Source: Gammaproteobacteria bacterium
Lineage (GTDB): Bacteria > Pseudomonadota > Gammaproteobacteria > Xanthomonadales > SZUA-36
Assembly: GCA_024275935.1 (NCBI GenBank)
Contig: JAJRYF010000064.1
Coordinates: 1,098 to 65,097, forward strand
Reading direction: 5' to 3'
DNA length: 64,000 nt
The position numbers were made by a program, and so were the translations under genes. Below the pieces are notes generated by a model. The model was not told the DNA's origin. It made no database searches and saw only the letters and a list, made by a program, of their open reading frames with translations. Of the stretch, positions 7,794-60,790 are shown piece by piece; position 1 is the first letter of the stretch, and every line of letters starts with the position of its first letter.

Positions 7794-9473
7794 TTATTGC
7801 CCGCGCTTGGCCCATGAATCCCTGAGGCTAACGGTGCGATTTAACACCGGCTTGTCGGCAGTGGAATCTTTTGAGTCAAAACAAAAATACCCGACCCGTT
7901 CAAACTGGAAGTTCTCGCCCCCAGCAAATACTGATGGTTCGACAATCGCTTGAGCCTTGCTCAGACAATCGGGATTAATGAACTCCTGAAAATCTCGTTG
8001 CTTATCTGCCAGCGGATTTTCCACATTAAATAAACGATCGTAAAGGCGCACTTCTGCGGCAACTCCATGCTCGGCTGAAACCCAGTGAATAGTGCCCTTT
8101 ACCCGCCGATTTGACTCCGGCATACCGCTGCGGGTTTGCGGGTCAAGCTCACATCGTATCTCTACTATTTCGCCATTTTCATCTTTCATCAGTTCAACAA
8201 ACTTGATAATAAAAGCATTACGCAACCGTACTTCGCCGCCAGGCTTGAGACGGAAATACTTGCGCACCGGCTCTTCCATAAAGTCGCCGCGTTCAATATA
8301 AATTTCCCGGGTAATTGGCACCTTGCGCTTGCCCATTGATTCATCCTGGGGATGGCGCGCCGCTTCCAACCATTCGGTCTCACCTTCAGGGAAATTCAAC
8401 AACACAATTTTCAGCGGGTCCAAAACCCCCATAGCCCGTGGAGCTGTTTGATTGAGCTCATTGCGAACTTCATTTTCCAACACCCCTAAAGGAATGATCG
8501 ATTCTGATTTTGTAACGCCAATTAGTTCCGCAAAATTGCGAATTGCCTGGGGTGGATAACCACGCCTACGCATGGCCGCTAGTGTCGGCATACGCGGGTC
8601 ATCCCAGCCATCTACCAGGCCTTCATCCACTAGCAATTTCAGGCGCCGCTTACTCATTACCGTGTAGTCAAGGTTTAGGCGAGCAAATTCAATTTGCTGT
8701 GGGTGGGCAGCAATTGAAATATTGTCCAATACCCAGTCATATAGCGGGCGATGATCTTCAAACTCCAAGGTGCATAATGAATGGGTAATACCCTCAATTG
8801 CATCCGAGATGCAGTGAGCAAAATCGTACATGGGATAAATATGCCAGGCATCACCAGTGCGCTGATGTGGAATGTTACGGATGCGATAAATCGCTGGATC
8901 ACGCATTTTGATATTCGGGGAAGCCATATCAATTTTTGCCCGTAGCACATAAGCACCATCTGGGAATTCCCCCGTACGCATCCGTGCAAACAGGTCCAGT
9001 GACTCTTCCTGTGGGCGCTCACGCCAAGGGCTTGGGCGACCAGCCTCCGTCAAGGTTCCCCGATATTCACGCATTTCATCAGCAGATAATTCTTCTACAT
9101 AGGCTTTGCCAGCCGTAATCAACTCAACTGCATAGTCATAGAATCTCTCAAAGTAGTCAGATGCGTGACAAAGCTCGTCCCATTGATAACCTAACCAGCG
9201 AATATCGGCCTCTATTGCCCGGGCGTACACTTCTTCCTCTTTAGCGGGATTGGTATCATCAAAACGCAAATTTGTCAGGCCGGAAAACTCCCTAGCCAGC
9301 TCGAAGTTCAAGCAAATGGCCTTGGCGTGCCCTATATGCAAGTAGCCATTTGGCTCTGGCGGAAACCGGGTTTTTATACTTTGATGTTTACCCGAACTCA
9401 AGTCAGCAATCACAATATTACGAATAAAGTGACTTACTTTGGTTTTCTCATCGGTGCTGGAATCTGTGCTCAT
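7794..9473 (-). CDS. glnS: Glutaminyl-tRNA synthetase
   Basis: Class I aaRS signatures HIGH (YLHIGHAKA) and KMSKS-like (VMSKR). Length 559 aa, with GlnRS-like sequence throughout. Confidence 0.95.
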
Positions 9474-11024: not shown

Positions 11025-11065
11025 TTAACGAGATCCCGGCTCGGGGGCCGGGACGACGATATATT
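11025..11065. repeat. Possible degenerate short copy of the GC-rich intergenic repeat family
   Basis: GATCCCGGCTCGGGGGCCGGGACGACG resembles the family core GGATTCCGGGTTCGGCTATTCGCCGCCCCGGAACGACG but has the loop deleted. It lies between convergent genes. Confidence 0.35.
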
Positions 11066-22774: not shown

Positions 22775-23215
22775 GTAGAAGAAGTTTCGCACCCGAACTC
22801 CGTCTTTCCGAGCGGCGAATGACCCCCTTCCTTCGTCTTTCCGGGGCGGCGAATAGCCGAACCCGGAATCCATGCGGAGGAACTGGATCCCGAATATTGC
22901 TACTCGCAATTCCGGGAGGACGGTTAGAGGATATTGCTACTCGCAATCGATGTGCAGGAAGCACGAATGCCGAGAGAGCACACGGCAGGTTTTTGCTCCT
23001 CGGCAATTGCTCGATCTCTGTTCCAGACTCGATTCCCGACAATTGCTCCTGCATTGTTCTACCTTCGCCCATCCATGGAATCGTCCTGCATTGCACTACT
23101 AAGTTACATCCATGTAACGATGCAAAACCTGCACTTCCACCATTCATGGTGGTCGGATGTGCGGAACGGCACGGGGTGACGAAAAGTGGTGATTACCTCG
23201 GAGATGTCAAAGTGA
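22775..23215. repeat. Long mosaic copy (A) of the GC-rich intergenic repeat family
   Basis: Holds the family core in reverse orientation (22834..22871, CGTCTTTCCGGGGCGGCGAATAGCCGAACCCGGAATCC) and a tandem partial copy at 22801..22825. Two ATTGCTACTCGCAAT hairpin modules are present. The GTGCTCTCTCGGCATTCGTGCTTCCTGCACATC module is shared with copy C. Confidence 0.8.
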
Positions 23216-25702: not shown

Positions 25703-25795
25703 ATTCCTGACTAGTTGATATTTTAGAGTTAGTATAACGCTTGGTTAATTAGTTATCATTCCGAGATGACGGTTATAGGATATTGCTATCGCCAC

Positions 25796-25820
25796 AAAAA
25801 AAGCCACCCGAGGGTGACTT
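25796..25820 (-). terminator. Rho-independent terminator after tRNA-Gln
   Basis: The minus strand reads GTCACC-CTCG-GGTGGC followed by TTTTTTT. On this strand the stem has a G-U wobble; on the plus strand the same position is a C-A mismatch. Confidence 0.65.
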
Positions 25821-25828
25821 TTTTGATT

Positions 25829-25902
25829 TGGCTGGGGGAGAGGGACTTGAACCCCCGCTGACGGAGTCAGAGTCCGTAGTACTACCACTATACGATCCCC
25901 CA
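25829..25902 (-). tRNA. tRNA-Gln (anticodon CUG), CCA encoded
   Basis: I folded the cloverleaf by hand. Acceptor stem is TGGGGGA/TCCCCCA and D arm is GTAT-AGTGGTA-GTAC. Anticodon arm is ACGGA-CTCTGAC-TCCGT (anticodon CTG). T arm is GGGGG-TTCAAGT-CCCTC, then discriminator G and CCA. Confidence 0.9.
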
Positions 25903-56844: not shown

Positions 56845-57045
56845 AGTTTGGCTCGATGTTATGGTAGGGCTGGGTTCCCTCCTGCACGGGAATGAAGGCG
56901 GTGGGCGGGAGTAGCAACATGCTTTCACTATCATGCCTGGCTGCTCTGCTTGCCTCAGCCTCCTGGATTCCGGGTTCGGCTATTCGCCGCCCCGGAACGA
57001 CGGGTGGGAGGTTGGCCCGGAAACACCTACTCCTCGCCATCCCGG
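56845..57045. repeat. Copy B of the GC-rich intergenic repeat family, between the RR and HK genes
   Basis: Core GGATTCCGGGTTCGGCTATTCGCCGCCCCGGAACGACG at 56965..57002. The CCCGGAAAC...CTCGCCATCCC module is also found in copy C. Confidence 0.8.
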
Positions 57046-57051
57046 AAATGC

Positions 57052-57741
57052 CTAAGCTGGCAACCAACGATAACCAGCCCCGTAAACAGTTTCCATTTGC
57101 GCGAAGCCTGAATCCAGGTGTTGAAACTTACGCCGGATGCGTTTGATGTGGCTGGTGATTGTTTGTGCGTCCACGAATACATTGGCATCATCCATTAATT
57201 GCTCACGACTACGCACATGGCCTGGGTATCGGGCGAGTGAATGTACCAGCCAGTACTCGGTTACTGTAAGCGGTACTACCTGGTCTTGCCATCTGGCTTC
57301 CATGCGAGCTGGGCGCAAACATAAATCACCGCGTTCAATCACAGTTTCATCACTGCCGCTGGCAAGTGCTTCCACTCGCCGCAAGAGGGCTACCACTCTG
57401 GCAATTAGGTGGCTCATACTAATTTCTTTGGAAAGATAGTCATCTGCACCTAAACGCAGGCCGGAAATCACATCCAGGTCGGAGTCTCTAGCGGTTAAAA
57501 AAATAATCGGCAAGGTCCGCGAGCGGGCTCGCAACTCACGACACAATTCAAAACCGCCCTCTACTTCCTCACCGAGGCCAACATCTATTATTACCAGCTC
57601 CGGTAACTTGCGAGCAAAGGCTTCCAAGGCGCTGGCTCGATCTGGGAAACCGGATACCCGGTAGCCATAACGAGTCAGGGCATCAGTATAGTTATGCCGA
57701 ATGGCGGCTTCATCTTCAATAATTGCTATATGGCGTGGCAT
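57052..57741 (-). CDS. OmpR-family response regulator of the dedicated sortase system
   Basis: Receiver domain (ELVIIDVGL) and winged-helix DNA-binding domain (LTVTEYWLV...VYGAGYRW). Confidence 0.9.
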   Translation of the reverse strand: MPRHIAIIEDEAAIRHNYTDALTRYGYRVSGFPDRASALEAFARKLPELVIIDVGLGEEVEGGFELCRELRARSRTLPIIFLTARDSDLDVISGLRLGADDYLSKEISMSHLIARVVALLRRVEALASGSDETVIERGDLCLRPARMEARWQDQVVPLTVTEYWLVHSLARYPGHVRSREQLMDDANVFVDAQTITSHIKRIRRKFQHLDSGFAQMETVYGAGYRWLPA

Positions 57742-60564: not shown

Positions 60565-60790
60565 CAAACGGAAGATTGCATGGATACAGGAGCAATACCC
60601 TCTACCCGTCACCCCGGAAACTACCAACTCTTCGTCATCCCTGGCCGTTCCGTACATCCATGTGCTCTCTCGGCATTCGTGCTTCCTGCACATCAAATGC
60701 GAGCAGCATTATCCGGGATCCAGTTCCCCAACATGGATTCCGGGTTCGGCTATTCGCCACCCCGGAACGACGAGGTTTTATTGCCTTTAA
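60565..60790. repeat. Copy C of the GC-rich intergenic repeat family, between the convergent sortase and djlA genes
   Basis: Core at 60735..60772 (GGATTCCGGGTTCGGCTATTCGCCACCCCGGAACGACG). It shares GTGCTCTCTCGGCATTCGTGCTTCCTGCACATC and flanking modules with the reverse complement of copy A. Copy A carries an extra internal segment of about 170 bp. Confidence 0.8.

Follow-up and report, generated by a model that had tools for sequence, protein, structure and literature searches.

Small extragenic repeats that carry an unpaired CGTC tag, or a close variant of it, form a described superfamily, known mainly from Alphaproteobacteria. Its families combine the tag with an 8-9-bp stem with A/T pairs in positions 1-2, a 4-5-nt loop and a CCA-type tail (PMC3733652). 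These CGTC-tagged REPs are mostly found as inverted, often heterotypic dimers; few dimers have the same orientation and clusters are rare (PMC3733652). They are located between convergent or unidirectional ORFs and were described as 'not associated to transposase genes' (Di Nocera, De Gregorio, Rocco 2013; PMC3733652). The Neisseria member of the CGTC class is the NTS, CGTCATTCCCGCGMAVGCGGGAATCYRG (Chenal et al. 2025, PMC11893778). It is the target of SsnA, a 94-aa single-domain GIY-YIG nuclease that binds and cuts the NTS only as single-stranded DNA and on one strand only, and compensatory changes of the NTS palindrome abolish this activity (PMC11893778). The ssnA gene is typically flanked by NTS-type repeats, and the generalised SRM motif reads HGTCWYN(0-2)YYVSBRHN(0-5)WNVSBRGN(0-2)RNCYNB (PMC11893778).

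The window analysed here is a stretch of 64,000 nucleotides, positions 1098-65097 of contig C39 in a draft genome (G000; 2.42 Mb, 155 contigs, 47% G+C, 92% complete). The genus includes 'Proteobacteria bacterium C1.bin.42' and 'uncultured Wenzhouxiangellaceae bacterium'. The repeats in the window are built around a single 39-nt unit, which reads TGGN-TYCCGGR-T-[5 nt]-TAYTC-[5 nt]-YCCGGRA-NGACG on the aligned strand and CGTC-N-TTCCGGG(G)-stem-GARTA-stem-(AA)CCCGGAA-TCCA on the tag strand. In its hairpin, the 7-bp outer stem (TTCCGGG/CCCGGAA) encloses a bulged T, an inner stem of 4-5 bp and a loop of 5 nt, which reads GARTA on the tag strand; the CGTC tag is unpaired, and the tail is TCCA. In an alignment of 74 units, conservation is at least 90% at columns 36 (G) and 38 (C), which fall in the tag, and the tail is present in 57 units as TGGA, TGGG or TGGT on the aligned strand, equivalent to (T)CCA on the tag strand. 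Two subtypes differ in the inner stem: CGGC/GCCG in M1 (~30 copies in the genome) and AATGC, ATTGC or AGCGC in M2 (~14 copies). The first-pass annotation had listed a 'ATTGCTACTCGCAAT hairpin' among the modules that flank the core. This hairpin is shared as described, but it is the M2 subtype of the core's own unit, inverted across an 11-nt spacer; core and hairpin are the M1 and M2 forms of one unit.

The likeness to the CGTC-tagged REP superfamily extends from the unit to its arrangement. The unit has the CGTC tag, a 5-nt loop, a CCA tail and T-A as its first pair or pairs. Ten doublets are present in the genome, all of them inverted M1+M2 heterodimers with the GACG/CGTC ends pointing outward and mostly an 11-nt spacer, and each can fold either as two hairpins or as a single long one. 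Units occupy convergent and tandem spacers, none lies in an ORF, and there is no link to tyrosine transposases (a unit lies within 1.5 kb of one Y1_Tnp locus out of 50). Two differences can be observed. The stem has 12 bp, arranged as 7 + 4-5 bp with a bulged T, rather than the 8-9 bp described, and the hosts are Gammaproteobacteria, one of which carries long arrays.

The Neisseria repeat provides the second point of comparison. Both repeats have a CGTC tag upstream of the palindrome, an (A)TTCC..GGAA(T) stem, a C after the palindrome and a CCA(G) tail: the NTS reads CGTCATTCCCGCG-MAV-GCGGGAATCYRG, and the unit CGTCATTCCGGGG..CCCGGAATCCATG. Both are dispersed, oriented and able to form hairpins, and in three relatives of the window's genome units bracket a gene for a single-domain GIY-YIG protein of ~95 aa. 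The centre differs: inside the unit sits a further, nested stem of 4-5 bp, together with a bulged T and a loop of 5 nt. The hosts also differ, being Wenzhouxiangellaceae-related Gammaproteobacteria; the window's own genome has no detectable ssn gene, and the protein of the relatives is a predicted nuclease. The published SRM motif finds 5 hits in the genome and 11 in a reversed control, none of them a unit. When its centre is widened to at most 20 nt, six true units match both half-sites exactly. The published pattern misses the units because their centre is a nested stem-loop of 13-15 nt, where the motif allows at most 5 nt.

The E. coli REP/BIME and Pseudomonas REPIN systems share several properties with the family: they are extragenic palindromes with two alternating subtypes, doublets, arrays and enrichment at gene 3' ends. 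However, a GTAG tag is missing from the unit, units do not flank any RAYT gene, and the partner, where one is seen, is a GIY-YIG nuclease and not an HUH enzyme. Taken as a whole, the family is best explained as dispersed, non-coding REP-class hairpins of the CGTC-tagged REP superfamily, equivalent to SRM and typified by the Neisseria NTS/dRS3, an assignment that we consider likely.

The first-pass annotation had placed the core at three loci. All three are recovered within one base, as M1 units at 22834-22872 (-), 56964-57002 (+) and 60734-60772 (+), with E-values of 1e-15 to 6e-16. Copy A lies between a GNAT gene and a gene for a protein of 480 aa. Its M1 unit at 22834-22872, on the - strand (the + strand reads CGTC..TCCA), is matched by covariance model R1 with 66 bits (E=6e-16; repeat pairs I1 and I3). 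It is preceded at 22801-22822 (-) by the 'tandem partial copy' of the earlier reading, which proves to be a 5' half-unit comprising the CGTC tag, the 5' arm and the loop of M1 (CGTCTTTCCGAGCGGCGAATGA, compared with CGTCTTTCCGGGGCGGCGAATAG at 22834). An M2 unit with the inner stem ATTGC/GCAAT follows at 22884-22922 (+; R1, 52.6 bits, E=3e-12). M1 and M2 are separated by 11 nt and form an inverted doublet with the CGTC tags outward and a two-hairpin fold (z=-3.3).

Beyond the doublet, copy A was proposed to equal copy C plus an internal duplication and an insert of about 170 bp, and this relationship is borne out. The duplication, at 22923-22947 (+), repeats the linker and a second M2 inner stem-loop (R1 partial match at 22931-22948; repeat family D7). 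It is followed at 22948-22985 (-) by the accessory module M3 (GATGTGCAGGAAGCACGAATGCCGAGAGAGCACA), which is common to copies A and C (repeat pair I2, 57 nt, 91%), and by a nested insert of ~165 nt at 22986-23150. By BLAST, this insert matches C43:11370-11522 (178 nt, 81%) as well as many contig ends. An M5/M4 accessory module (GGATGTGCGGAACGGCACGGGGTGACG), read directly at 23150-23185 (-), is the counterpart of 60633-60660 in copy C.

The insert is related to the inner hairpins of a second, separate MITE-like family. Its members are ~170-200 nt long, with inverted ends GCATGAATTCTGGGTGCTCGCCTGAGAC and inner hairpins GCAGGTTTTGCA/GCAAAACCTGC and CCGCCAAGGATGGCGG, and the genome contains at least 15 termini, often at contig ends. 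Loci of this family are found at 22986-23150 in the window, at C43:11290-11570 and C54:14590-14790 and in the first 140 nt of C3, C11 and C115. The segment in copy A corresponds to a diverged and interrupted piece of the inner part of the element, where the inner hairpins are located.

Copy B sits in the spacer between a response-regulator and a histidine-kinase gene, which form a two-gene operon (Pfam matches). Its M1 unit (56964-57002, +; R1, 64.9 bits) is accompanied at 57016-57051 (+) by an M4-type tail module (CCCGGAAACACCTACTCCTCGCCATCCCGGAAATGC) that was read as a degenerate inverted partner; R1 gives a weak match at 57035-57066, and the module also occurs on C121 and C58. Copy C is located between convergent sortase and TerB-DnaJ genes. 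An M4 module at 60613-60641 (+, read directly) ends in the CGTCATCCC tag and the arm of a disrupted M2 unit. A 53-nt M5+M3 insertion lies inside this M2 unit (60642-60695, +; the composite recurs on C18 and C139), and the inner stem-loop, 3' arm and TCCA tail that complete it are at 60696-60723 (-; R1 match 60678-60722, 16 bits). The disrupted M2 as a whole spans 60633-60723 (-), and the M1 unit follows at 60734-60772 (+; R1, 60.6 bits).

The flanking modules reported as shared between copies are real. Module GTGCTCTCTCGGCATTCGTGCTTCCTGCACATC is present at 60661-60695 and, as its reverse complement, at 22948-22985 (91% identity), and module CCCGGAAAC..TCG.CATCCC is present at 57016-57044 and 60613-60641. 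Such modules, like the remaining ones, are linkers and tails found repeatedly next to units: M4 is a linker with a repeated 3' arm, and M5+M3 is the 53-nt insertion within an M2 unit, a composite that is itself repeated. The shortened look-alike reported at 11032-11059 stands in part. A possible collapsed unit at 11030-11058 (+) retains the tag, outer stem and tail; the inner stem-loop is missing and the R1 match is weak (16.2 bits, E=0.043). Similar collapsed forms are also present in relatives. A further fragment at 25758-25788 (+), composed of a unit 3' end, a linker and the start of M2, has 90% identity to 22909-22939 (D7) and adjoins a tRNA gene (25832-25902, -), beside which a terminator-like hairpin is found at 25797-25824. 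An Rfam search with the window copies gave no match at E<=1. The ORFs that overlap the repeats were taken to be spurious, and they have no Pfam match. The repeat copies generate spurious ORFs, which matters for annotation.

BLAST and a consensus scan indicate ~45 units in the genome, and 45 sequences match at least 20 of 26 consensus positions, as opposed to one in a reversed-sequence control. None of 41 curated units lies within a long ORF, although ORFs make up 89% of the genome. The spacers that bear units are 14 convergent, 14 tandem and 1 divergent, where 4.8, 18.9 and 5.2 are expected (p=1.6e-5). The units are strictly extragenic, as had been claimed, and favour gene 3' ends. At the sole orthologous site that could be compared, units are not kept: the orthologues of site C in three sister species (G001, G003, G005) have no unit.

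Conservation of the hairpin was analysed in the 74 distinct units, taken from six genomes of the genus, with a 12-bp hairpin counted. Paired cells reach 88%, compared with 75.9 ± 0.7% in shuffles, and cells changed on both sides number 93, compared with 24 ± 4. Eight of the 12 pairs covary, while controls with slid partners are 30-61% paired. At least 17 versions of the inner stem were recorded in the family and order, all of them still complementary; the TAYTC loop, outer stem, bulged T and both flanks, the CGTC tag included, stay fixed. The covariation support is strong and the hairpin is under selection. Together with the copy number and the extragenic placement, it upholds the earlier suggestion of a REP/MITE-like dispersed hairpin family.

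Such a hairpin at gene ends could act in the transcript, as a terminator, a protector of mRNA 3' ends or a small RNA, and have spread through its usefulness. The strong enrichment downstream of genes and the depletion in divergent (promoter) spacers are consistent with this, as are the position of copy B inside a two-gene operon and the tag-strand loop GARTA, which fits a GNRNA pentaloop. The REPs of E. coli stabilise the upstream mRNA. However, neither of two terminator scans calls any unit an intrinsic terminator, and the scans lend no support to the terminator role raised in the first-pass annotation; where a T-run is present, it begins ~9 nt past the stem. The orientation relative to the upstream gene is mixed in tandem spacers (8 sense, 5 antisense). 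Mismatches in the 74 units are G-T in 22 cases and A-C in 29, so that neither strand is favoured, unlike the prediction for a constraint on RNA only. Recognition of the DNA itself is suggested by the tag and tail, which are unpaired and conserved, and by the nuclease genes that lie among the units of relatives. We consider RNA-level function unlikely as the main explanation of the family.

We used covariance model R1 for searches across genomes. A strict 30-mer had suggested a genus-restricted family. R1 overturned this view: it detects the unit in 47 of the 94 genomes of the bacterial family, with 11 of 19 genera represented, and at the level of the order in 20 of 151 genomes and six families. 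Plasmid and phage searches for the repeat gave no match. In G160, BIME-like arrays of up to ~10 alternating units lie between genes of a polysaccharide cluster. The arrays fill the spacers of this export and synthesis cluster (L161, G160:C50:4500-24000), which encodes Wza, Wzc, Wzy and GT4 proteins, and one of them contains the GIY-YIG gene.

Inverted units, with 19 further complementary bases, bound at least five copies of a ~530-bp non-coding element in G062. The interior of these copies (L125-L129) occurs in both orientations, and the left and right terminal units keep their identity (inner stems ATTTC and AGGCC). The element could be an invertible segment or the product of recombination between inverted ends. 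The ~440-nt interior of unit-bounded elements matches the Rfam family TwoAYGGAY (RF01731; gathering score 43), with 49.3 bits for G023 (L132:344-408), above gathering, and 38.2 bits for G062 (L125:473-537), below it; the window copies show no match to RF01731.

Elements of this kind raise the question of whether the 39-nt unit is the terminal inverted repeat of a MITE family derived from an insertion sequence with a DDE transposase. The G062 elements have inverted unit ends in multiple non-coding copies, the modules are nested and shuffled, and a second, true MITE-like family is present in the genome. Nevertheless, no parent insertion sequence with these ends was found, and the genes bracketed by units are ordinary ones (atp operon, higBA, AhpD-like). 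Most units are singlets. The unit is asymmetric, with a tag at one end and a tail at the other, its internal hairpin covaries, and tandem alternating arrays are unlike MITEs. No target-site duplication is definable, the spacers of sister genomes being too diverged. We rate a MITE origin as very improbable.

The first-pass annotation had also suggested a RAYT partner. In the classical REP/REPIN systems of E. coli and Pseudomonas, the repeats are mobilised in trans by such a Y1 HUH transposase, and the same could apply here: inverted doublets fold as one long or two hairpins, units are extragenic and dispersed, and Y1_Tnp-like genes exist in the genome and genus. Searches for Y1_Tnp (PF01797) extended from the window's own genome to its genus, family and order, and the covariance model was run over the loci. 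Among the 50 loci (±1.5 kb, 27 genomes), the single one with a unit nearby encodes a catalytically dead homologue in a convergent spacer, an association that we put down to chance. Y1 (RAYT-like) genes of the genus fall into three kinds: a classical RAYT flanked by GTAG-type REPs, a second kind flanked by GGGGTCAGAGTA repeats that is a pseudogene in the window's genome, and a third that has lost the HUH and Tyr motifs. The intact types carry their own distinct repeats, GTAGGGTGGGCATTTATGCCCACGCGT and GGGGTCAGAGTA, and the unit lacks the GTAG tag. No Y1_Tnp match was obtained in six unit-rich genomes (G067, G106, G065, G209, G033, G169). No RAYT partner was found, and mobilisation by a RAYT is largely refuted, with hardly any probability left to it.

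The Y1 gene that has lost its catalytic residues (G000:C82:29383-29892; L002:1393-1902) has HUH changed to QLQ and lacks the catalytic Tyr. It is found as a single copy beside an ettA-like gene in 7/7 genomes of the genus, with 55-73% identity. It looks like a domesticated, inactive transposase because of this single-copy conservation, the altered HUH and the lost Tyr. As a partner of the units it was rejected, being genus-specific and not following unit presence. A RAYT-like gene of the HVH/YRYIELNP type at G000:C6:5000-5800 (L001) is broken by two stop codons and has inverted ATAATCGGGGTCAGAGTA repeats on its flanks; G002 carries an intact copy. The classical GTAG-tagged REP (GTAGGGTGGGCATTTATGCCCACGCGT) flanks the classical RAYT of G004 and G006, with loci at L032:2022-2105, L026:1273-2140 and L003:3830-3965. 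It is essentially missing from the window's genome, and in G002 two such REPs bracket one 39-nt unit. Two other candidate partners were discarded: a DUF559 nuclease, found in only 2 of 94 family genomes, and, in G062, G023 and G086, the genes enclosed by inverted units, which are ordinary ones.

A different enzyme is found among the units. Using tblastn, we located a 95-aa single-domain GIY-YIG ORF between units in three relatives. In G003, which belongs to the same genus, the gene (L227:180-464) lies among units at 23-61, 615-653 and 665-703. In G119 it is at L163:2476-2742, between units at 2201-2239 and 2780-2818, and in G160 at L161:8629-8895, between units at 8388-8426 and 9078-9116. The G119 and G160 proteins have 52% and 49% identity to that of G003. 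The search in relatives covered the DNA around units and shows genes embedded in repeats, not all such genes. The G003 protein matches PF01541 (E=7e-17) and has faint similarity to UPF0213 structures (E=0.085), and there is 63% identity to an approximate probe sequence. Size, the single domain, the PF01541 match, the non-UPF0213 character and the probe identity together suggest that the bracketed proteins are putative members of the Ssn family (cd10448).

In G062, the ±1.5 kb around 20 unit-bearing regions showed no Ssn-like GIY-YIG gene, and neither did 17 unit-bearing regions of G002. In the window's genome, the sole small GIY-YIG ORF (C43:10441-10719) is of the widely conserved UPF0213/YhbQ type and has no unit within 700 nt, and tblastn with the G003 protein yields nothing beyond it. 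A weak tblastn hit on C3 fell within another gene and was dismissed as chance. At C58:8991-9075, beside an xth-like gene, lies the orthologue of the G003 cassette site, an 85-nt spacer with neither gene nor unit. With an assembly of 92% completeness and contigs broken by repeats, an ssn-type gene is likely, though not certainly, absent from this genome.

By analogy with Neisseria SsnA, an Ssn-type nuclease that acts on single-stranded DNA probably recognises and cleaves the units. Such a nuclease would read the tag and the outer stem by sequence and the inner stem as shape only. Sequence reading of the outer stem is consistent with the finding that compensatory changes in the NTS abolish activity (PMC11893778). 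A cassette of nuclease gene and repeat probably seeds or maintains the family. As no nuclease gene is detectable in the window's genome, its ~45 units are most likely orphans, or served by a gene copy missing from the assembly. Orphan units would persist in places that tolerate stable hairpins, downstream of genes.

It is doubtful, although conceivable, that the units of the window's genome, and those of unit-rich relatives with neither an Ssn-like nor a Y1 gene seen close to units, are instead served by an unrecognised trans-acting protein specific for hairpins, or that they persist enzyme-free because the hairpin itself is selected; we assign these two readings a low probability jointly. A candidate for such a protein is the UPF0213/YhbQ-type GIY-YIG, as the sole small GIY-YIG gene in the window's genome. 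If either were true, the variants would constitute a natural 'mutational scan' that defines the recognition code, in which the inner stem changes freely as long as it pairs, and no variation is seen in the tag, outer stem, bulged T and loop.

For the Ssn-type explanation, which we favour, the drift of the inner stem against the fixed tag, outer stem and loop, across at least six families, predicts which parts of the unit the nuclease reads by sequence and which by shape. The class of repeats is already known; what is new is a nested-stem unit architecture that the published search motif overlooks. A unit-rich genome without a detectable nuclease gene, beside a sister species that has the cassette, provides a natural contrast that bears on whether such repeats need their own enzyme to persist. 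The findings extend systems of repeats and Ssn-type nucleases to an uncultured, denitrifying, Wenzhouxiangellaceae-related lineage of Gammaproteobacteria.
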